Below, piece by piece: positions 30,245-61,182 of a stretch of DNA of 64,000 nt. The first letter of the stretch is position 1, and each line of letters opens with the position of its first letter. The notes under the pieces are model-generated. The model saw only the letters and a program-made list of their open reading frames with translations, did no database searches and was not told the DNA's origin. A program made the translations under genes and the position numbers. Source of the DNA: Arcobacteraceae bacterium (GTDB lineage Bacteria > Campylobacterota > Campylobacteria > Campylobacterales > Arcobacteraceae); the NCBI GenBank assembly GCA_963662945.1, contig OY759974.1:416001-480000 (forward strand), written 5' to 3'.

Positions 30245-30595
30245 TTAGTTTTGATTATCCCAAACAAGTTGTTTAAAGGCTTTCATTGAAGGTTTATCTA
30301 TATTTTTCATCATAGCGACTCTTAAATTATGGATAATCTCTTCATACTCTTTTTTGGGTTTGATAGGATTATCAGTTCGTGACATCGCAATAATTTGATG
30401 TATTTTTTTGTTTAATGGTGTTGGTTCTTTATCTACTATTCCATCATAAACTGACATAAACAGATTATAGTTATCATAATCCATTTTACATGAACCATCA
30501 AGTATTTTCAAAGCTAACAGTGTACAATAATGTAAATCTATCTCATCAAACTCATAGGTTCTTGCCCACTCATAAACTGTGGATAAATCATCCAT
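30245..30595 (-). CDS. Hypothetical protein coupled to the nif-associated clpX
   Basis: ATG 30595 overlaps the 3' end of clpX; no motif recognised. Confidence 0.7.
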   Translation of the reverse strand: MDDLSTVYEWARTYEFDEIDLHYCTLLALKILDGSCKMDYDNYNLFMSVYDGIVDKEPTPLNKKIHQIIAMSRTDNPIKPKKEYEEIIHNLRVAMMKNIDKPSMKAFKQLVWDNQN

Positions 30596-31835
30596 TTTCT
30601 TTTTCTTCAATAATGTTTTTTGCCACTTTTTTATCTTTTACATATTCTAAGATAACATCTGCTTTAGCATCAATAAAATCTTTTGTTATGATACATTTTT
30701 CAATATCATTTGATGCAGGAAGTTCATACTGAAGTGGCAGCATAATTTTTTCTATAATACCCCGAAGACCTCTTGCCCCAACACCTTTTTTCTGCGCAAG
30801 TTCTGCAATTGTTTCTAAAGCTTCAGGAGTGAACTCTAAATCCATACCATCAAGTTCAAATAATGCTTGATATTGTTTAATAATAGCATTTTTAGGTTCT
30901 TGTAAAACTCGTATTAAATCTTCTGTTGTAAGTTCATTGAGTGTTGCAATTACAGGAATTCTTCCTATAAACTCAGGGATTAATCCATAAGAGATTAAAT
31001 CTTTTGATTCAACCTCATCAGTAATATCCGCAAAACTTTCTTTCATAAATCCCATAACTTTTTTTCTATGTTTTTTCTTTTGTTCATCATCTCCAACAAG
31101 ACCAACAAAAGCACCACCACAGATAAAAAGTACATGTGTAGTATCAAATAAAACAGTTTCAGTAGTTGAACTTTTTCTACTTCCTTTTACAGGAACATAA
31201 ACCTCTCCACCTTCAAGAATTTTCAATAATCCTTGTTGAACACCTTCTCCACTTACATCTCTACCACTTGTTGCACTTTCACTTTTATTTGCAACTTTAT
31301 CTATCTCATCGATATAGATAATCCCTTTTTGCGCTCTCTCAACATCAAAATCTGCACTTGCTAAAAGTCGTGAAAGGATAGACTCAACATCTTCCCCAAC
31401 ATATCCAGCTTCTGTTAAAGCTGTAGCATCTGCAACTGCAAATGGTACATCCATAATCTTAGCTAGTGATTTTGCCAAAAGTGTTTTACCACTTCCTGTT
31501 GGACCTATAAGCATGATATTTGATTTTTCTATCTCAACATCTTTAAAAACAGGTCTATCTATTCTTTTATAATGTGAGTATAAAGCAACTGAAAGTACTT
31601 TTTTTGCATCACTTTGCCCTATTACATAATTATCAAGATGTTCTTTGATTTTTGTAGGAACTGAAAGCCCTTTTTGAAAATCTTCTTTTGCTTTTTTCAA
31701 CTCGCTTTTGTGCATAACCATTGAACAGGTTTCTACACATTCATTACAGATATGTGCATTTTCAGCACTAAATATTTTATTTACTTCTGAGACTTTTTTA
31801 CCACAAAAATCACATATTAATTCTTCTTTATTCAT
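30588..31835 (-). CDS. clpX: Clp protease ATPase ClpX (atypical, probably a nif-associated paralog)
   Basis: Zn finger CDFC...ICNEC, GPTGSGKT, GYVGEDVE, RDVSGEGVQQ, GARGLR. Confidence 0.9.
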   Translation of the reverse strand: MNKEELICDFCGKKVSEVNKIFSAENAHICNECVETCSMVMHKSELKKAKEDFQKGLSVPTKIKEHLDNYVIGQSDAKKVLSVALYSHYKRIDRPVFKDVEIEKSNIMLIGPTGSGKTLLAKSLAKIMDVPFAVADATALTEAGYVGEDVESILSRLLASADFDVERAQKGIIYIDEIDKVANKSESATSGRDVSGEGVQQGLLKILEGGEVYVPVKGSRKSSTTETVLFDTTHVLFICGGAFVGLVGDDEQKKKHRKKVMGFMKESFADITDEVESKDLISYGLIPEFIGRIPVIATLNELTTEDLIRVLQEPKNAIIKQYQALFELDGMDLEFTPEALETIAELAQKKGVGARGLRGIIEKIMLPLQYELPASNDIEKCIITKDFIDAKADVILEYVKDKKVAKNIIEEKENG

Positions 31836-35861: not shown

Positions 35862-36401
35862 TTAGCCGTGGCAGCCTACACCTGTATATGTTACATATGC
35901 TTTATTAAGTTCTACTTGTAATCTATCTAAATCAAACTCTTTTTCTAAATTTGATGGCATATCCAAAAAGAAAACTGCTCCATCTTTTGAAATTAAAAAC
36001 AATGCTTTTGTAAGTTTATCTTCCATACTACCACTTACTATTTTTGTTCCATACATATTTCCAAATTCATCTTCACTATCAAAGACCATCTCAAACTTTT
36101 TTAATCTATTTTTAAATACAGTAGTATTTTCTAACTTTTCATTGAAAATAAAATAACATTGAATTGGAACTTGTATATTACTCATAAACTGATCTATTTT
36201 TAAAATCTCTTTACTAAAGTTATCACTTGCATCAGGAAAAGAGATAAACAAACTCATAGCTCCATCACTATGACTTCTTTTAATCTCTTTTTTTTCTCCA
36301 TTAACATCAGAAACTTCAAAGTTTTCAGCCATATACCCTATATCGATAAAATCTTCGCACAGTTCGTATTCTTCACCTTTGAATGTAACATTAGATTCCA
36401 T
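35862..36401 (-). CDS. Thiol-peroxidase/redoxin-fold protein lacking the peroxidatic Cys
   Basis: Tpx-like N-terminus (VTFKG...IGYMAENF), FGNMYG, KALFLISKDG; overlaps the nifA stop. Confidence 0.65.
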   Translation of the reverse strand: MESNVTFKGEEYELCEDFIDIGYMAENFEVSDVNGEKKEIKRSHSDGAMSLFISFPDASDNFSKEILKIDQFMSNIQVPIQCYFIFNEKLENTTVFKNRLKKFEMVFDSEDEFGNMYGTKIVSGSMEDKLTKALFLISKDGAVFFLDMPSNLEKEFDLDRLQVELNKAYVTYTGVGCHG

Positions 36402-37911
36402 ATTTTTTTACCTTATAGCCTATTTGTCGTACTGTAATTCCTAACATATCTGCTGCACGTGATTGATTATTATCACACTCTTTCAATGCTTTCATAATCG
36501 CTTCACGTTCTAGTTCATCAAGAGTTTTATTTTCCATTGGAATTGTTTTATACTCTTCAATCAGTTTTTCATTTTTCAATGCAGGAAGAAGTAAAAGCAT
36601 ATCAGCAGCACTAATGCCATCTTCATCCCCCATCAATACAATTCTTTCAATTGTATTCTCCATCTCTCTTACATTTCCAGGCCAAGGATATCCCATAAGT
36701 TTATCCATAGCTTCATCTGTGATTTTCACCACTTTTTTATGATTTTTCATACTTCTTTCAAGAAAGAAATTTACAAGAAGTTTGATATCTTCACCTCTTT
36801 TTCGTAGAGGTGGTAAATCTATTGGAATAACATTCAATCTGTAGTATAAATCCTCTCTAAACTCACCATCTTTTACCATTTGTTCAAGATTTCTATTGGT
36901 TGCTGCTACTAATCTTACATTTACTTTGATTGTTTTACTTCCACCAACTCTCTCAAACTCTCTTTCTTGTAAAACTCTTAAAAGTTTCACTTGCGCACTT
37001 GCACTAATGTCACCTATTTCATCTAAAAATAAAGTTCCTTTATCTGCTAGTTCAAATCTACCTTTTCTTGTCTCTTTTGCATCTGTAAATGCACCTTTTT
37101 CATGTCCAAAAAGTTCACTTTCTAATAAACTGTCAGTGATAGCTGCACAGTTTAACTTCACGAACGGCTCTTCAGCTCTACGACTTCTTTTGTGAATTGC
37201 TGCTGCAACTAGTTCTTTCCCAGTTCCAGTTTCTCCGCGTACAAGTACTGTCACGTCACTTTGTGCAATTCTTTCAACAACTTTGTAGACATCTTTCATC
37301 TTTTTACTCTCACCAATTATGTCACCAAAATTATGCACTTTTGAATCCCACTCCATTTTATAATACTGTTTAAGATCTTTTAATTTCTCTTTTTCATCCT
37401 CTAGAACAAAATGAGAATACATACTTTGAGCAAATAATGAACTAATGATTGACAATATTCTAACAGTATCATCAAATCCCATTTTTGTAGATTTCGTCAG
37501 ATTTGTTGCTAACACACCAATTGTTTCATGTTCTACAATCATAGGAACTGCAATATAAGAAATAGTATCACTACTTCTGTTACCTGATTTATTTAAAAAC
37601 AATATATCATTGTGCACATTCTCAATAACAACTGGCTCCATACTTTTTGCAGCTAAACCAGTAGCACCTTCACCAATTCTATATTCTGAAATGATTTTTT
37701 GATGTTTGTTAAAATTGATTGATGCGAAGATATTTAAAATATCATCTTCTCTTTTATATATAACACAATTTTCTAAATCTAGATTTTTCTTCAACACCAT
37801 AAGGCATTTTTCCAAAGATTGAACAATTTGTCCACGAGAATCAGCTATAATTGTAGCAATCTCTTGTAAAACATTAAGTTCTATTTGTATCAAACTATCT
37901 TCATTATTCAT
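36391..37911 (-). CDS. nifA: Nif-specific sigma54 activator (GAF-AAA+-HTH)
   Basis: GAF (YRIGEGATG), GETGTGKE, ESELFGHEKGAFTDA, WPGNVRE, HTH RQIGYKVKKY; nif context. Confidence 0.88.
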   Translation of the reverse strand: MNNEDSLIQIELNVLQEIATIIADSRGQIVQSLEKCLMVLKKNLDLENCVIYKREDDILNIFASINFNKHQKIISEYRIGEGATGLAAKSMEPVVIENVHNDILFLNKSGNRSSDTISYIAVPMIVEHETIGVLATNLTKSTKMGFDDTVRILSIISSLFAQSMYSHFVLEDEKEKLKDLKQYYKMEWDSKVHNFGDIIGESKKMKDVYKVVERIAQSDVTVLVRGETGTGKELVAAAIHKRSRRAEEPFVKLNCAAITDSLLESELFGHEKGAFTDAKETRKGRFELADKGTLFLDEIGDISASAQVKLLRVLQEREFERVGGSKTIKVNVRLVAATNRNLEQMVKDGEFREDLYYRLNVIPIDLPPLRKRGEDIKLLVNFFLERSMKNHKKVVKITDEAMDKLMGYPWPGNVREMENTIERIVLMGDEDGISAADMLLLLPALKNEKLIEEYKTIPMENKTLDELEREAIMKALKECDNNQSRAADMLGITVRQIGYKVKKYGI

Positions 37912-37995: not shown

Positions 37996-38205
37996 TCAAT
38001 CTGCAAGTTTTTTACAAACTTCCTCTTTTGGCAAATTTTTAGGACCAGGTTGTATCCACCAAGTTTCACCATTACTTAATTCAACTTCTCCACCCCAATT
38101 ATCATCATCGCTAAACTCTATTGTTTCAATAGTTTCTTCCATATCTTTTTTAGCTATATAAAAATAAATCTCTCCATCTGCTTCTCTTAACATTACTTTT
38201 GCCAT
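37996..38205 (-). CDS. nifT: NifT/FixU protein
   Basis: KVMLR...YIAKKDMEE...WGG..ELSNG pattern. Confidence 0.85.
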   Translation of the reverse strand: MAKVMLREADGEIYFYIAKKDMEETIETIEFSDDDNWGGEVELSNGETWWIQPGPKNLPKEEVCKKLAD

Positions 38206-50060: not shown

Positions 50061-50843
50061 TTATTTTCCTATCATCACATCAGATGATTTTATAATAGCA
50101 CTTACACTATCACCAATTTGTAAATCTAAATTTCCTGTAGCATTTTTGGTAATAACAGATGCAATTTTATCCCCATTACCTATATCTACTAAAACTTCAC
50201 TGTTAATCTCACCTAAGTTTATATCAGTAATCTTACCTTGAAATTTATTTCTTGCACTTATATTGAGACTTAAATCAGTTGTTAAAAGAACTGAACTTGA
50301 TTTGAAAATAGCTACAACTTCATCTTTAAGCTGTAAATTTAAATTTTCTATTGCACCATTTGTAATAACACTTACTAATGTATATCCACTTTTTAATTTT
50401 ACATATACAGAAGAATTTACTTTTCCTTGCTCAATGTGTTCGACTGTTCCTTGTATCTGATTTCTTGCACTTATTTGCATTGAAAACCTTTCTAGAGATT
50501 TAAGGGCTCCTGTGTTAAAATCTGTCATCTTTGTCAATTGTGATAAAAACTTTTCATGTTCTTTTTGAAGAGTCGAATATGTTTTAATTAAGTTTTTACC
50601 ATAAGGTGTCACTTTTGCACCACCACCTCCAACACCACCTGTAGATTTCTCTACAACGGTTGTTGGACAAAGGTTGTTTATGGCATCGATAGCATCCCAT
50701 GCAGCTTTATAGCTCATGGGTACCTTTTTTGCAGCTTTACTAATAGAACCAGCCTCTTCTATATAACTTATGAGTTTGATTCTTTTTTCTAGTAGTAATG
50801 GTGTATCGCTATTAAATATTGTTAAAGATGATGAAAATTCCAC
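50061..50843 (-). CDS. modE: Molybdate-responsive regulator (wHTH plus two TOBE domains)
   Basis: GSISKAAK..MSYKAAW, GGVGGGGA, SARN twice. Confidence 0.92.
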   Translation of the reverse strand: MEFSSSLTIFNSDTPLLLEKRIKLISYIEEAGSISKAAKKVPMSYKAAWDAIDAINNLCPTTVVEKSTGGVGGGGAKVTPYGKNLIKTYSTLQKEHEKFLSQLTKMTDFNTGALKSLERFSMQISARNQIQGTVEHIEQGKVNSSVYVKLKSGYTLVSVITNGAIENLNLQLKDEVVAIFKSSSVLLTTDLSLNISARNKFQGKITDINLGEINSEVLVDIGNGDKIASVITKNATGNLDLQIGDSVSAIIKSSDVMIGK

Positions 50844-50849
50844 ATTGAG

Positions 50850-50877
50850 TTCCTTATATAAACTGGTACATAACGAT
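50850..50877. promoter_or_regulatory. ModE box overlapping the modE RBS
   Basis: TTCCTTATATA-N6-TACATAACGAT. Confidence 0.75.
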
Positions 50878-50913
50878 TTTTAAAAAAAATTCGCTATTCC
50901 CAACAAAAATATT

Positions 50914-50941
50914 ATCGTTATATAACTTAATATACAATGAA
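50914..50941. promoter_or_regulatory. Second ModE box upstream of modE
   Basis: ATCGTTATATA-N6-TATACAATGAA. Confidence 0.75.
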
Positions 50942-50946
50942 TATCT

Positions 50947-50978
50947 AAAAAAAACTAGAAGAAGTATCTTCTAGTTTT
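50947..50978 (-). terminator. Intrinsic terminator after nifK
   Basis: AAAACTAGAAGA-N4-TCTTCTAGTTTT with a T-run on the minus strand. Confidence 0.8.
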
Positions 50979-51008
50979 AATCTGTAAATTTCGAAATTAC
51001 TATTGAAA

Positions 51009-52556
51009 TTATCTCACACAATCAAAGAAATAATCTGTTTTAGCTATATCTTTTGTTTCTTCATCTAATTGATCAAGAACAGAGTTTGTAATCCATGTTA
51101 ATAGATTTAAAGCACCTTTATAACCACTCATAGAGTATCTATGTAAGTGATGTCTATCAAAAATTGGGAAACCAATTCTGATTAAAGGTATTTTTGTATC
51201 TCTGTATAATTCTTTACCGTAAACATTTCCGATTAAGAAATCTACAGGCTCTGTAAATAATAATGATCTTAAATGCCATAAATCTTTACCAGCCCAGATT
51301 TGACAATCACTTGCCCAATCAGATTTGTCAATGATTGCTTGCATATCTGCTTCCCAACCTTTTCTTGGAGCATTGTGACATAATACGTGAGTTGGAATAC
51401 CACCCATTTCAACGATAAATGAAACAAGACCTAATAAGAAATCTGGATCACCATAGATTGCAAACTTTTTACCATGCATATATGGGTAAGAATCTTGCAT
51501 TGCATCTACTAATTGTGCTCTTTGAACTTTAAGAGCTTCAGGAACTTCTTTTCCTGTTAATTCAGCTAATTTCATTACAAACTCATCTGTACCAGCAAGT
51601 CCTATTGGATTACAAGTTTCGTATCCTTGTTTCCATTTATTTTTAATAGTCTTAGCAGTTTGAACTGTAGAATATTTTTGTAAAGAGATAGTTGCTTTAG
51701 CATTAATAGCTGTTTTAGCATCTTCCATTGAAGTACCACCAGCATATAGTGAATATCCACCAGCTCCAGTATTCCATTGCTCTTCGTGGTCACCTAACAT
51801 TACAATTTTGTCAGAGAACATTTTTGAAATTTCTTTAACTTCAGCTAATGATCCTAAGTATGGTTCAAAACCTGGAATAATGTTAATTCTTTCTTCATCT
51901 TTAACACTTGCTTCTTTACCGATACTTAATTGCTCAAGCATAGATTTCATCATATTATCATAACCTGTAATATGTGATCCAACAAATGATGGTGTATGAG
52001 CATAAGTTATTGGTAAATTATCTAATTCACCCTCAGCTTCATCTTTAGCACCGATAATAAATGCACCTAAGTCATCCCCGATAACTTCTGCCATACAAGT
52101 TGTAGATACAGCTATGTGTTCTGGTTTGTACATTGCATTACAGTTTCTTAAACCATCTTTCATATTTGCTAATCCACCGAAAACCGCTGCAGATTCAGAC
52201 ATAGAGTCAGAAACACATGGTGTTGGTTCTTTAAAGTGTCTTGTAAAGTATGATCTGAAGTATGCAACACATCCATGAGAACCATGTACATAAGGCATAG
52301 TATTTTCAAATCCAAGAGCAGCCATAATAGCACCTAATGGTTGACAAGCTTTAGCAGGGTTAACTGTAATAGCTTCTCTTGCTAGGTTTTTTTCTCTGTA
52401 ATCCCAAGATTTAGTCCACTCAGCAACTTCTTCAACTTTAGCAGGATTAACTGCACCCATTGAACCTTCGAATTGTTTTTTCGCTGCAAGAGAAGTTTGG
52501 TATTCTTCTTTTAAAAACAGCTTTTGTCCGTTTACTATATTATTTACATCTTGCAT
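51009..52556 (-). CDS. nifK: Nitrogenase MoFe protein beta chain
   Basis: NPAKACQPLG, HGSHGCVAY, TTCMAEVIGDD, GFPIFDRHH. Confidence 0.98.
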   Translation of the reverse strand: MQDVNNIVNGQKLFLKEEYQTSLAAKKQFEGSMGAVNPAKVEEVAEWTKSWDYREKNLAREAITVNPAKACQPLGAIMAALGFENTMPYVHGSHGCVAYFRSYFTRHFKEPTPCVSDSMSESAAVFGGLANMKDGLRNCNAMYKPEHIAVSTTCMAEVIGDDLGAFIIGAKDEAEGELDNLPITYAHTPSFVGSHITGYDNMMKSMLEQLSIGKEASVKDEERINIIPGFEPYLGSLAEVKEISKMFSDKIVMLGDHEEQWNTGAGGYSLYAGGTSMEDAKTAINAKATISLQKYSTVQTAKTIKNKWKQGYETCNPIGLAGTDEFVMKLAELTGKEVPEALKVQRAQLVDAMQDSYPYMHGKKFAIYGDPDFLLGLVSFIVEMGGIPTHVLCHNAPRKGWEADMQAIIDKSDWASDCQIWAGKDLWHLRSLLFTEPVDFLIGNVYGKELYRDTKIPLIRIGFPIFDRHHLHRYSMSGYKGALNLLTWITNSVLDQLDEETKDIAKTDYFFDCVR

Positions 52557-52557
52557 A

Positions 52558-54024
52558 TTAAGCTCCTACCTCTTCTTTTTCCCATGGTGCTTTTGTATGA
52601 CTCCAAACTGGTGAGTTCATAGCTAAGTCCATATCTTTTGCGAATACTGCGAATGCATCATAACCATGGTATGGTCCAGAGTAATCCCATGAGTGCATTT
52701 GTCTAAATGGTAATCCCATTTTTTGGAATACATATTTCTCTTTAACTCCAGATGCAACTAAATCTGGTTTTAATTTTTGAACAAATTTTTCTAATTCGTA
52801 TTCATTAACATCATCATAGATTAATGTTGATCTTTCTAAATCTTCTTTTGTTCTTTTGTAATCATCACCGTGAGCAAATTCGTAACCTGTTCCGATAACT
52901 TCCATACCTAAATCTTCGTAAGCTCCAATAACGTGTCTTGGTCTTAATCCACCAACGTATAGCATTACTTTTTTACCTTCTAATTTAGGTCTGTATTTAG
53001 CAATAACTTCATCAGTCATTTTTGTATATTTAGCTATTACAGCTTCTGCTTTTTCTTGAACTTCTGGTCCAAAGAACTCAGCAATTTTTCTTAAAGACTC
53101 AGTAGTTTTACTTGGTCCAAAGAAGTTGTACTCCATCCAAGGTATACCAAACTCTTGTTCCATATGTCTTGAAATGTAGTTCATAGATCTATAACAGTGT
53201 AATAAGTTAAGTTTTGCTTTTGGTGCGATAGCCATCTCTTTATATGTAGCATCTCCTGACCATTGTGCAATAACTCTTAATCCCATCTCTTCTAATAATA
53301 TTCTTGAAGCCCAAGCATCTCCACCGATGTTGTAATCTCCAATGATAGCTACGTCAAAATCTGTAGATTCAAAATTTTGTCTGTGTGAAGCATCTGGCAT
53401 AACTTCATCTCTAATCATATCGTTAGCGATATGGTGACCTAAAGATTGAGAAACCCCTCTAAAACCTTCACATGAAACTGCGATTGTTGGTTTATTAGAT
53501 TCTTTTTTATGTACTTTTGCAACAGCTTGAATATCATCCCCGATAAGACCGATTGGACACTCAGATTGAATTGATATACCATTATTTAATGGGAATAACT
53601 CATCAATTTCTGTTAAAGCTTTTTTAAGTTTTGTATCTCCACCGAATACAATATCTTTTTCAGAAAAATCTGTTGTAAAGTTCATTGTTACGAATGTATC
53701 AACACCTGTTGTACCAATGTAGTAGTTTCTTCTACCAGCTCTTGAATATTGTCCACAACCTACTGGTCCGTGAGAAATATGGATCATATCTTTAATTGGT
53801 CCCCATACAACACCCTTAGAACCTGCGTACGCACAACCTCTTTGAGACATTACACCTGGAACAGTTTGTTTATTACTTCTTGTTTTATCACAAGCACCTT
53901 TTACACCCTCTGGGCTATCAACACCTAAGTGCTTTGCTCTGTTTTTTGCAGCTTTTGCAGGGTAAACAGACAGTACCTCTTCGATAGCTTCTTTTTGTAA
54001 AGCTTCTAATTCTTCGTTTGCCAT
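52558..54024 (-). CDS. nifD: Nitrogenase MoFe protein alpha chain
   Basis: [21 protein letters not shown]; FeMo-co ligands HCYRS and QMHSWDY. Confidence 0.98.
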
Positions 54025-54051
54025 AACTTTCCTTTCTTATTTTGAAAGAGG

Positions 54052-54090
54052 AATTAAGAGAACTAAACTCTTAACTCTTAACTCTTAATT
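54052..54090. repeat. ACTCTTA x3 tandem repeat with an inverted copy, upstream of nifD
   Basis: AATTAAGAG (54052-54060) and (ACTCTTA)3 (54067-54087). Confidence 0.75.
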
Positions 54091-54101
54091 TTTTAACTTA
54101 A

Positions 54102-54461
54102 TTACGCTACTTTAACTCTGTAAAGATTCATATCATCTAATTTTTTACATAAATCTTTTGTAGCTTCTCCATCAACTGATTTAGAGATTTCTGAAATTTG
54201 GTATTTATTTGTGTAATAAATCATTTTGAAATCATCTTTTGCAGCAACTTCAGAATTTGTGTAGTAATCTACAAACGCTGTGTGAGCAAATGTTCCTGCT
54301 GGAACTTCTATAGTTTCTAATTGAACACCTTCTCTTGTTTCACTTGTTAATGTAACAGTTTTACCTGCTGCATCAGTACCTTCTTCTACTTTAGCTATAA
54401 CTTTATCAAAAGCTACATCGTTCCCTTCACTTGCTGGAAAATGATAACCACATACAAACAT
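54102..54461 (-). CDS. Uncharacterised protein encoded between nifH and nifD
   Basis: 119-aa ORF, strong RBS AGGAG, codon usage resembling nifHDK. Confidence 0.85.
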   Translation of the reverse strand: MFVCGYHFPASEGNDVAFDKVIAKVEEGTDAAGKTVTLTSETREGVQLETIEVPAGTFAHTAFVDYYTNSEVAAKDDFKMIYYTNKYQISEISKSVDGEATKDLCKKLDDMNLYRVKVA

Positions 54462-54517
54462 AATTTTCTCCTGTTGTTTAATTTTTATTTTGTTTATTTT
54501 AATTTTTTTATTTTATA

Positions 54518-54537
54518 CTTGAGGAGTTAACCTCAAG
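54518..54537. other. Stem-loop downstream of nifH
   Basis: CTTGAGG-N6-CCTCAAG with no T-run on the minus strand. Confidence 0.6.
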
Positions 54538-54564
54538 ATTTGAAACCTGAAATCTTAATAAATA

Positions 54565-55572
<1,008 letters not shown>

Positions 55573-55736
55573 TTATCTAGTTGCCTTATTTAAGGGCCTT
55601 ATAAGTATTTAAGATAAAAATTATCTTATTTGTTAATTTAAAATTGTTGTTATTTTGTAAGAACATTTTTGGAATTTTTCCATTTACAAAAATGTTTTTG
55701 TAAAATTTATAACTATTTACAAAAAGTAGTTATTAA

Positions 55737-55752
55737 TGTAGAATAGGCAACA
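55737..55752. promoter_or_regulatory. Candidate NifA upstream activator sequence
   Basis: TGT-N10-ACA about 200 bp upstream of the nifH -24 element. Confidence 0.5.
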
Positions 55753-55776
55753 TTAAATAACTTCTAAAGGGAAATA

Positions 55777-57189
55777 ATGAAAACTCAACTCAAAATGTCT
55801 AACTTACTTAGTATGAAAGTTAGAATATATCTCTATATTTTTTCTTTATCAACTTTACTCTTTTCTCAGAACTATTGTATTAACGTATGTCCTTTTATTG
55901 ATAGTATTACTAATAGTGAACTTGTGTTTAATCTTTTTATAATATTTTTGATACATATTATTGTAAGAGAAATTTTGTATAAAGTATTTAATACCCCATT
56001 TAAAAATTTAACTTTACCTAGACATGCTTATTATTTATCTATTATCTCATGGATGATTGCTGGTATAGCTGCTTTTATATTACATTTTTTTAAATATCCT
56101 ACATTTCCAATAGGAAGTCATATCAAACTTCTTAGCAGTTATTGGATACTTGGTGCTGCAATTTTATCACAGCTTGAATATATATTATTCGAAAAAAGAT
56201 TTAAAGAGATTGCTACGAATGTTGATATTTCTAAATATAATGAAAATATTTCGAAAAGAATAGTTGAGAGCTTTATTATTCTTACTGTTGCCCCAGCAAT
56301 AACTATTTTTTTAATACTAGCTCGATACTATCACGATAATGTTTTTAATAACTCTCATATTATTCAAGAGATAGGTTATGTTATAGCACTATTTGTCATA
56401 ACTGCTATTGCATCATCCCTCCTATTTTCAAAAATGTTAAAAAAAGATACAAAAATGATATTAAAAAATATTAAGAGTATTCAAAATGGTAATTATCAAA
56501 TCAATATTGATATTACAAGAGCTGATGAACTTGGAGAGATATCAAATGCAATAGAACATATGGCTACAAAAATTGATTCTTTAAATCAAGAGATTGTTAG
56601 CACCCAAATGGAAGTTGTAAATAAAATGGGTGAGATAGCTGAAACAAGAAGTAAAGAGACAGGAAATCATGTTAAAAGGGTTGCTCTTTATACAGAAGTT
56701 TTAGCTTTGAAATATGGTATGAGTGAAAAGGAAGCTGAAATTCTAAAACAAGCAAGTCCTATGCACGATATTGGCAAAGTTGGAATTCCTGATAATATTT
56801 TAAATAAAACAGGTCGTCATACTATTGAAGAGTTTGAGATTATGAAAACACATGCACAAATTGGTTATGATATATTAAAGAGTTCTGATCGTCCTATATT
56901 AAAAGCTGCTGCAATAGTTGCTTATGAACATCATGAAAAATGGGATGGAACTGGTTATCCAAGAGGACTAAAAGAGGAAAATATTCATATTTATGGTCGT
57001 ATAACGGCTGTTGCAGATGTATATGATGCACTTGGTAGTGATAGATGTTATAAAAAAGCGTGGGATGAGGGAAAAATTTTAGAATTGTTTCAAGAACAAA
57101 AAGGGAAACATTTTGACCCTACTATTATTGAAATATTTTTTGAAAATATAGATACCTTTAGAAAAATACGAGATAGTTTAAAAGATTAA
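55777..57189 (+). CDS. Membrane HAMP/HD-GYP phosphodiesterase
   Basis: Several TM helices, HAMP (RADELGEI), ETGNHV, MHDIGK, HHEKWDGTGYP. Confidence 0.9.
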   Translation: MKTQLKMSNLLSMKVRIYLYIFSLSTLLFSQNYCINVCPFIDSITNSELVFNLFIIFLIHIIVREILYKVFNTPFKNLTLPRHAYYLSIISWMIAGIAAFILHFFKYPTFPIGSHIKLLSSYWILGAAILSQLEYILFEKRFKEIATNVDISKYNENISKRIVESFIILTVAPAITIFLILARYYHDNVFNNSHIIQEIGYVIALFVITAIASSLLFSKMLKKDTKMILKNIKSIQNGNYQINIDITRADELGEISNAIEHMATKIDSLNQEIVSTQMEVVNKMGEIAETRSKETGNHVKRVALYTEVLALKYGMSEKEAEILKQASPMHDIGKVGIPDNILNKTGRHTIEEFEIMKTHAQIGYDILKSSDRPILKAAAIVAYEHHEKWDGTGYPRGLKEENIHIYGRITAVADVYDALGSDRCYKKAWDEGKILELFQEQKGKHFDPTIIEIFFENIDTFRKIRDSLKD

Positions 57190-60564: not shown

Positions 60565-61149
60565 TTATTTATTTTTTTCTATAACTTTATCTATTAAACC
60601 ATATTGAAGTGCTTCTTCTGCACTCATAAAATTATCTCTTTCAGTATCTTTTTCTACTGTTTTAATATCTTGTCCTGTTTGTTCTGATAATAAATGATTT
60701 AACAACTCTTTTATTCTTAATATCTCTTTTGCTTGAATAGCTATATCTGTAGCTTGACCTTGCGCTCCACCTAATGGTTGGTGTATCATAATTCTACTAT
60801 GTGGTAAAGAATATCTTTTCCCTTTTGTTCCTGAACTTAATAAAAAAGCACCCATTGAAGCTGCTTGTCCTATACAAATAGTACAAATATCTGGTTTGAT
60901 ATAATTCATAGTATCAAAGATTGACATACCACTTGTAATAACTCCACCAGGAGAGTTAATGTAAAGGTAAATATCTTTTTCTGGATCTTCTGCTTCTAAA
61001 AATAGTAACTGTGCAACTATTGTTGATGCTACAGCATCATTTACTTCACCACTTAACATAATAATTCTATCTTTTAAAAGACGAGAGTAAATATCGTAAC
61101 TTCTCTCCCCTCTTCCACTTTGCTCAACCACATAAGGTATATAACTCAT
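60565..61149 (-). CDS. clpP: Clp protease proteolytic subunit
   Basis: [24 protein letters not shown]; start at ATG 61149 (RBS AAGGA). Confidence 0.96.
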
Positions 61150-61182
61150 ATTAATCCTTTTTGACAATTTGATCTAATTTCT

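Follow-up and report, generated by a model that had tools for sequence, protein, structure and literature searches.

An uncharacterised acidic protein encoded between nifH and nifD in the nitrogenase operons of Campylobacterales

A small gene, here called gene X, is located between nifH and nifD in the nitrogenase operon of an Arcobacteraceae bacterium and of its relatives. Its product (X) is very probably a well-expressed, acidic 13-kDa protein that is dedicated to nitrogenase. Judged from sequence, gene order and distribution, X is probably a nitrogenase accessory protein of a new family and an as yet unstudied helper or regulator of nitrogen fixation. As a tentative reading, to which we give clearly less than an even chance, X may be a roughly stoichiometric, direct binding partner of the Fe protein NifH in the Campylobacterales-type nitrogenase.

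Gene X and its operon

The features of the operon are listed in Table 1. All positions refer to the window, i.e. the complete stretch of 64,000 nucleotides that was analysed.

Table 1. Positions of gene X, its operon and further features in the window.
Feature	Position	Strand	Basis or remark
NifA-type activator	36391-37911		
nifT/fixU	38029-38205	-	PF06988, 61 bits
Terminator-like hairpin after nifK	50951..50978	-	12 pairs + T run
nifK (MoFe protein beta)	51009..52556	-	
nifD (MoFe protein alpha)	52558..54024	-	TIGR01282, 827 bits
10-bp stem-loop, X-nifD spacer	54051..54077	-	fold z -2.30; no U-tract
Gene X	54102..54461	-	119-aa acidic protein, uncharacterised family restricted to Campylobacterales nif/anf operons
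Ribosome-binding site of gene X, AGGAG	54468..54472	-	six bases before ATG
7-bp stem-loop, nifH-X spacer	54518..54537	-	fold z -1.96; A-rich, not U-rich, tail; not terminator-like
nifH (Fe protein), 304 aa from ATG at 55479	54565..55479	-	Pfam Fer4_NifH, 400 bits; TIGR01287, 424 bits
About 12 inserted codons in nifH (roughly residues 84-95) relative to solved NifH	55195..55230	-	
Sigma-54-type promoter-like element TGGAACACTATGTGCA (GG-N10-GC) upstream of nifH	55523..55538	-	by eye

The open reading frame of gene X consists of an ATG start, 119 codons and a TAA stop. The protein has a pI of 4.74, with 20 Asp and Glu residues against 13 Lys and Arg residues, and its only Cys residues are at positions 4 and 105. 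The reading frame, the acidic character and the strong ribosome-binding site that an earlier note had read from the same DNA are thereby confirmed. The signal AGGAG or AAGGAG also stands ahead of the X homolog at nearly every one of 70 related loci (77 analysed).

On a codon log-preference index X scores +0.061 (out-of-sample), compared with +0.10 to +0.19 for nifH, nifD and nifK and -0.26 to +0.03 for 19 other genes of the window; the index is biased, as both reference sets were scored in-sample. With this bias, X leans in the direction given by the earlier note, which had described its codon usage as similar to that of nifHDK. Operon place, ribosome-binding site and codon usage make it plausible that the product is abundant. 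Of 23 sequencing runs found in a survey, 20 contain part of the window. Six of these 20 are sediment metatranscriptomes, which hold 0.07-0.12 of the words of the window, shares too small to serve as evidence of expression.

The median dN/dS of X is 0.161 (59 operons; 1453 usable of 1711 pairs). In the same operons the medians are 0.059 for nifH, 0.090 for nifD and 0.112 for nifK. These values indicate that gene X is a real gene under purifying selection, far beyond chance.

The promoter-like element upstream of nifH has GTGCA instead of TTGCW and was hence missed by a strict pattern scan. The ORF finder places the start of nifH at a GTG at 55539, within this element. The likely start is the ATG at 55479, which has AAGGAG ahead of it; the TIGR01287 match (cut-off 394 bits) begins at residue 5. 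No sigma-54-like element was seen between nifH and gene X. Of the two terminator-like sites on the minus strand in 50800-55900, one lies within nifH; the hairpin after nifK is the only one located between or behind the genes. Gene X apparently shares one unit, from sigma-54 promoter to terminator, with nifH, nifD and nifK and would have no promoter or terminator of its own.

The spacers on the two sides of gene X measure 103 nt (nifH-X) and 77 nt (X-nifD). The corresponding medians in related loci are 79 and 45 nt (n = 77). Individual spacers flanking X in related loci are between 0 and 323 nt in length, and those that are long fold strongly (-119 kcal/mol at the lowest).

More broadly, the window is a neighbourhood of nitrogen-fixation genes that includes modE- and modABC-like genes, glnB-amtB-glnA, nifU, nifS and nifQ. 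The nifT/fixU gene, too short for the list of open reading frames of 80 aa, is flanked by the gene of the NifA-type activator and a gene for an FAD-binding oxidoreductase. Divergent from the nifH promoter region, a membrane protein of the HD-GYP type (MASE10-HAMP-HD_5) is encoded on the plus strand (55777-57189), possibly a c-di-GMP phosphodiesterase. A clpP gene is located between glnA and nifU (60565-61167, minus strand), and the same nif/mod neighbourhood contains a clpX-type gene further along (30588-31835, minus strand).

Linkage of X to nitrogenase across genomes

X and NifD occur in the same 16 of 41 relatives. In 80 loci from species-representative genomes, a NifD-type gene directly follows X in every case. 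In 78 of these, nifH directly precedes X; the two remaining loci are cut off by the contig end 78-166 nt ahead of X. Among 22 further operons, which include a divergent clade, the order nifH-X-nifD was recovered by a motif filter in 21; in the remaining operon (L105) no nifH passed this filter.

The same picture emerges from 401 Campylobacterota genomes, of which 50 match the X profile and 51 contain a nifD match at E≤1e-100. Above the curated cut-off, nifD is present in 49 of the 401 genomes, and X is located immediately upstream, on the same contig and strand, in 49 of 49 (adjacency read from coordinates; the genome samples are draws, not censuses, and relatives are not independent). X is single-copy and found only beside nifD or anfD in the genomes searched. 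The exception in copy number is one genome with two copies (L065 and L068), described below.

Two deviating nif clusters are informative. The nif genome without X (G039; locus L094, G039:C14:3500-11500) carries a high-GC cluster with the order nifH-nifI1-nifI2-nifD-nifK-nifE. Both small genes match Pfam P-II (79 and 64 bits), NifD has 544 aa, and NifH has 274 aa and is devoid of the insertion described below. This cluster, in a genome of the same bacterial order, is of a different nitrogenase type and was probably acquired separately. The second cluster is a ruin (G326; locus L093, G326:C1:1434000-1441500), in which nifH is split and nifD, nifK, nifE and nifN are present in fragments. Here the remnant of X is fused in frame to the tail of nifH and the invariant TNKYQ motif is lost. 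Because of the linkage in 49 of 49 genomes and of these two exceptions, X appears to be confined to one nitrogenase type, to occupy the position that nifI1 and nifI2 take in another type, and to be lost together with the nitrogenase.

The earlier note had predicted a nitrogenase-associated factor. Strict synteny, complete co-occurrence in the samples, decay together with the nitrogenase genes and the copy in an anf operon strongly support this part of the prediction, and the position between nifH and nifD is conserved well beyond the window. The particular functions that it suggested for X, as a chaperone, an O2-protection protein or a switch-off protein, stay candidate roles. That X is a passenger gene unrelated to nitrogenase, or no functional protein at all, is hardly credible. 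The lack of a known family or fold match would fit a passenger. Against it stand the dN/dS of 0.16, the conserved ribosome-binding site, the position next to nifD or anfD alone in every genome searched and the joint decay with a dead nif cluster.

Sequence family, fold and comparison with known nitrogenase proteins

A Pfam search with X returned no family; the closest entry is DUF3108_like (PF21347) with 15.7 bits (cut-off 27, E 0.014). This identity is rejected: the score is under the gathering cut-off, the feature match of 0.89 comes with recognition below threshold and the AF2 model is alpha/beta. The NCBIfam search gave nothing meaningful.

In total, 286 database proteins match X at E≤0.001, and the 120 listed are 78-94% identical. 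A separate profile search covered the best 120 of 390 hits, beyond which any remote relatives would lie. At E≤0.001, a HMMER search over 1.84 billion representatives yielded 21 proteins. Among them are one representative of the close family, several fragments and eight divergent members of full length (118-137 aa, 33-43% identical), as well as P0135, a probable chimeric call, and two giant repeat proteins. The giant proteins (P0123 and P0141, SdrD_B/CARDB) match with a 29-residue motif at each repeat start and a single-comparison E of 0.008-0.05. They are rejected as relatives because the score of a short motif is summed over the repeats, i.e. the match is due to chance. Among odd-length family matches no informative fusion of X was found: P0135 (157 aa) looks chimeric and P0049 (148 aa) looks like a wrong start.

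The source names of the homologs among the matches listed are 'hypothetical protein' except for one JGI label, 'ABC-type Na+ efflux pump permease subunit', which is without sequence support. All named homologs among these matches belong to Campylobacterota, except one MAG labelled Marichromatium, whose protein shares a 90% cluster with a Sulfurospirillum protein. The hosts named are Arcobacter, Halarcobacter, Marinarcus, Sulfurimonas, Sulfurovum/Sulfurovaceae, Sulfuricurvum, Sulfurospirillum and unclassified Campylobacterales.

In 80 members of the family the positions kept at ≥99% are M1, F2, G5, H7, F8, P9, A10, G13, V21, A62, N85, Y87, Q88 and D97. The N-terminal segment is invariant and a YTNKYQ patch is located at the start of a helix. 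His7 is present in 80 of 80 members and Cys105 in 77 of 80. Cys4 is present in 62 and is replaced by Leu in the other 18, and CGYH is no Cys-ligand motif. The Cys-based CGYH site hinted at in the earlier note is therefore not upheld.

The AF2 model of X is of the alpha/beta type (mean pLDDT 87.8, pTM 0.82; 23-row alignment). In the fold search the only neighbour that stands out is the N-terminal domain of long-form DapD (PDB entries 2rij and 3r5a), with a Foldseek E of 0.01 and TM of 0.42-0.47, and a VIA Z of 5.0 (rmsd 4.4, 105 residues), a Z below the level commonly reached by chance. Homology to this domain is rejected, with an hhalign probability of 0.11% for the X profile against the N-terminal 151 aa of the genome's own DapD, and no functional link is apparent. 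A sequence profile search of the PDB with X returned SpoIIQ at E 0.2 alone. Thus X matches no characterised family, with a best structural Z of 5.0, in line with the earlier note, which had called the gene uncharacterised.

X was compared with the small proteins known from other nitrogenase systems. Nearest to it are NifI1/NifI2 in position, AnfG/VnfG as small proteins of the structural operon, and Shethna protein II, CowN and NifM in possible role; by sequence X belongs to none of them. NifI1 and NifI2 are likewise small proteins encoded between nifH and nifD, and in the phylum sample the nifI1-nifI2 pair and X are mutually exclusive occupants of this slot. However, NifI1 and NifI2 are two genes and belong to the P-II family, whereas X is a single gene that gives no PF00543 hit at E≤1 and has an hhalign probability of 0.08% against three PII proteins. 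The statement that X is not PII-like, made previously from the sequence, holds. The genome itself contains five PII-family matches. One of these, a divergent gene (61.5 bits; G000:C1:713448-714505), immediately precedes nifW and nifZ in a second nif cluster, which is separated from the window by about 235 kb.

AnfG and VnfG are stoichiometric subunits of the alternative nitrogenases. They resemble X in length (~115-125 aa) and in their location inside the structural operon. Their genes lie between the D and K genes, in contrast to the position of X between H and D, and X does not match TIGR02929 or TIGR02930. Moreover, a true AnfG coexists with X in one operon (L068).

Shethna protein II (FeSII) is small and acidic, like X. 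According to a 2026 review, FeSII binds the nitrogenase components and its gene is located away from nif (PMC13474568). The hosts of X include strains reported, in another paper, to fix N2 with O2 as the electron acceptor (PMC12029903). X differs from FeSII, a ferredoxin of the [2Fe-2S] kind whose four Cys ligands are conserved: X has two Cys residues, of which Cys4 is not conserved, and shows no ferredoxin match. CowN is, like X, a small accessory protein of the nif regulon without a cofactor, but X gives no NF033689 hit at E≤1 and a separate CowN is encoded elsewhere in the genome (G000 487617-487901; 72 bits, cut-off 48). X is not NifT, NifW or NifZ either: PF06988, PF03206 and PF04319 give no hit, and all three proteins are found elsewhere in the genome above their cut-offs. 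A search of the genome for DraT gave no match, but the control genomes were silent as well, so that this negative carries no weight.

X might be an adaptor for electron delivery or metabolite sensing that links the Fe protein to a ferredoxin, a flavodoxin or a small-molecule signal; this is quite unlikely. Its invariant N-terminal loop, GxHFPAxxGN, includes His7 and might serve as a ligand or docking site, and the acidic surface may be likened to that of electron-donor proteins. But X has neither a cofactor-binding motif nor a family match, and its neighbourhood points to no particular donor.

Candidate partners of X

A first indication of a partner comes from a genome of Candidatus Marinarcus sp., in which the nifH-X module is duplicated. 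One copy leads nifH-X-nifDK (L065) and the other leads nifH-X-anfD-anfG-anfK (L068), 11.7 kb apart. The anf genes of L068 (2908-7727) are all above the curated cut-offs, with AnfG matching TIGR02929 at 139.9 bits. This Fe-only nitrogenase operon is headed by a near-identical copy of the Mo-type nifH and X, and no distinct anfH is present.

Between the two loci, NifH is identical in 301 of 304 residues and X in 117 of 119. At the DNA level the copies are 96-97% identical across nifH, X and the preceding ~200 nt, and this identity ends exactly at the stop codon of X. Homogenisation that simply stops where nifD and anfD are no longer alike would give the same block end. The alpha chains encoded downstream of the two copies match NifD of the window at 89% and 34%. 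Since a near-identical X precedes both nifDK and anfDGK, nearly the same X would serve two catalytic components that share one Fe protein.

The second indication is an insertion in NifH. The matched span is 12-15 residues shorter in each of the 23 solved NifH sequences, and in the three alignments shown (3/3) solved NifH has a 12-residue gap at this position. An insertion of 9-13 residues and variable sequence is present in every X-linked NifH whose segment was extracted. NifD and NifK contain no comparable lineage-specific insertion relative to solved structures. A search with the insertion region returned 34 proteins at E≤0.001 from 38 candidates; the six matches named by organism are all Campylobacterales or Sulfurimonas, from which absence elsewhere does not follow. 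The AF2 model of NifH (27-row alignment) has a pLDDT of 35.6 and is useless for placing the insertion, probably because the alignment is too uniform.

We tentatively favour NifH as the partner for three reasons. Two different catalytic components are preceded by the same intact nifH-X module, the insertion in NifH is the only lineage-specific structural change among the three structural proteins, and X bears no cofactor or enzyme signature (no conserved Cys pairs, no enzyme-family match). X would thus bind NifH directly and in roughly stoichiometric amounts, and NifH rather than NifDK would be its target. As an extra, lineage-specific partner X may stabilise or gate NifH, and it would act neither as an enzyme nor as a metal-cluster protein.

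Alternatively, X could bind the catalytic component (NifDK, AnfDGK) at a shared surface, e.g. the docking face for the Fe protein, and serve as a switch-off or protective cap like NifI1/NifI2 or CowN. We consider this possible, if doubtful. X occupies the nifI1-nifI2 slot of the one X-less nif cluster in the phylum sample and is always located directly upstream of the D gene. On the other hand, the copies of X in L065 and L068 are near-identical although the alpha chains behind them are so different, X has no PII similarity, and the genome already possesses CowN and the PII gene beside nifW and nifZ. Furthermore, neither NifD nor NifK has a lineage-specific feature that would match X.

Evolutionary distances were compared as well. 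Over 80 operons, X distances give partial rank correlations of 0.25 for the NifH insertion, 0.42 for the remainder of NifH and 0.48 for NifD, the highest value and one in favour of the catalytic component. In a smaller operon set the corresponding values are 0.52 for NifH, 0.23 for NifK and 0.01 for NifD, the NifD matrix being affected by outliers. Distance correlations (Mantel, partial) do not single out NifH or tell the partners apart and are confounded by shared history. Similarly, two types of X (Cys4/Tyr6 and Leu4/Phe6) track two types of insertion in 78 of 80 operons; this match is one clade-level split in the tree, not a series of independent events. It may be that the insertion and X are unrelated to each other and became fixed once in one ancestor.

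A third candidate role is that of a maturation or folding factor of the Fe protein, i.e. a stand-in for NifM, needed transiently to obtain active NifH with its insertion. We regard this role as unlikely. NifM may be dedicated to NifH, as X would be as a partner or maturation factor, and the duplicated module links X to nifH. The genome contains no NifM above the cut-off (best match 64.5 bits versus 168.2, as for generic PPIases), and weak fold matches to PPIase and trigger-factor domains are found at noise level (Z 2.2-2.4). However, NifM is a PPIase, whereas X matches neither a PPIase domain nor TIGR02933 and has less than half the length of that model (256 positions). No chaperone or isomerase family matches X, and its place in the structural operon and its strong ribosome-binding site suggest amounts well above those of a catalytic chaperone. 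Many diazotrophs lack NifM, and lack any replacement for it, which also counts against this role.

How X would act on NifH, if NifH is its partner, may only be sketched. Judged by the Fe-protein structure of A. vinelandii, the insertion would be located in a hairpin turn far from the MoFe-docking face. Therefore, the insertion by itself would give no gating mechanism. A more far-reaching proposal is that X is a cofactor-free gatekeeper seated on the NifH insertion. It would reversibly lock or shield both the Mo and the Fe-only nitrogenase during O2 or ammonium shocks and would replace NifI1/NifI2 or Shethna protein II in these microaerophilic chemolithoautotrophs. This proposal is speculative, and we would be surprised if all of it held.

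The literature searched on nif clusters and nitrogenase regulators, with subscription journals and supplements outside the search, yielded no description of X. Table 3 of one paper (PMC4674564) and a figure legend of another (PMC12029903) give the nif genes of X-bearing organisms as nifHDK, without X. The 2026 review expects new nitrogenase regulatory proteins (PMC13474568). In two papers, Campylobacterota (Sulfurimonas, Sulfurovum and relatives of Arcobacter) are described as major dark chemolithoautotrophic N2 fixers of sulfidic sediments (PMC11474244; PMC12029903).

The nitrogenase operon of these Campylobacterota thus has a fourth gene, which is always present in the samples searched. Even a dispensable X would be notable, given its location in the pathway's most conserved operon. 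Should X prove to modulate the Fe protein or the catalytic component by binding to it, X would be a new member of the short list of direct regulators and protectors of nitrogenase. In that case X would bear on the transfer and engineering of nitrogenase and would also be a marker gene for this nitrogenase lineage.
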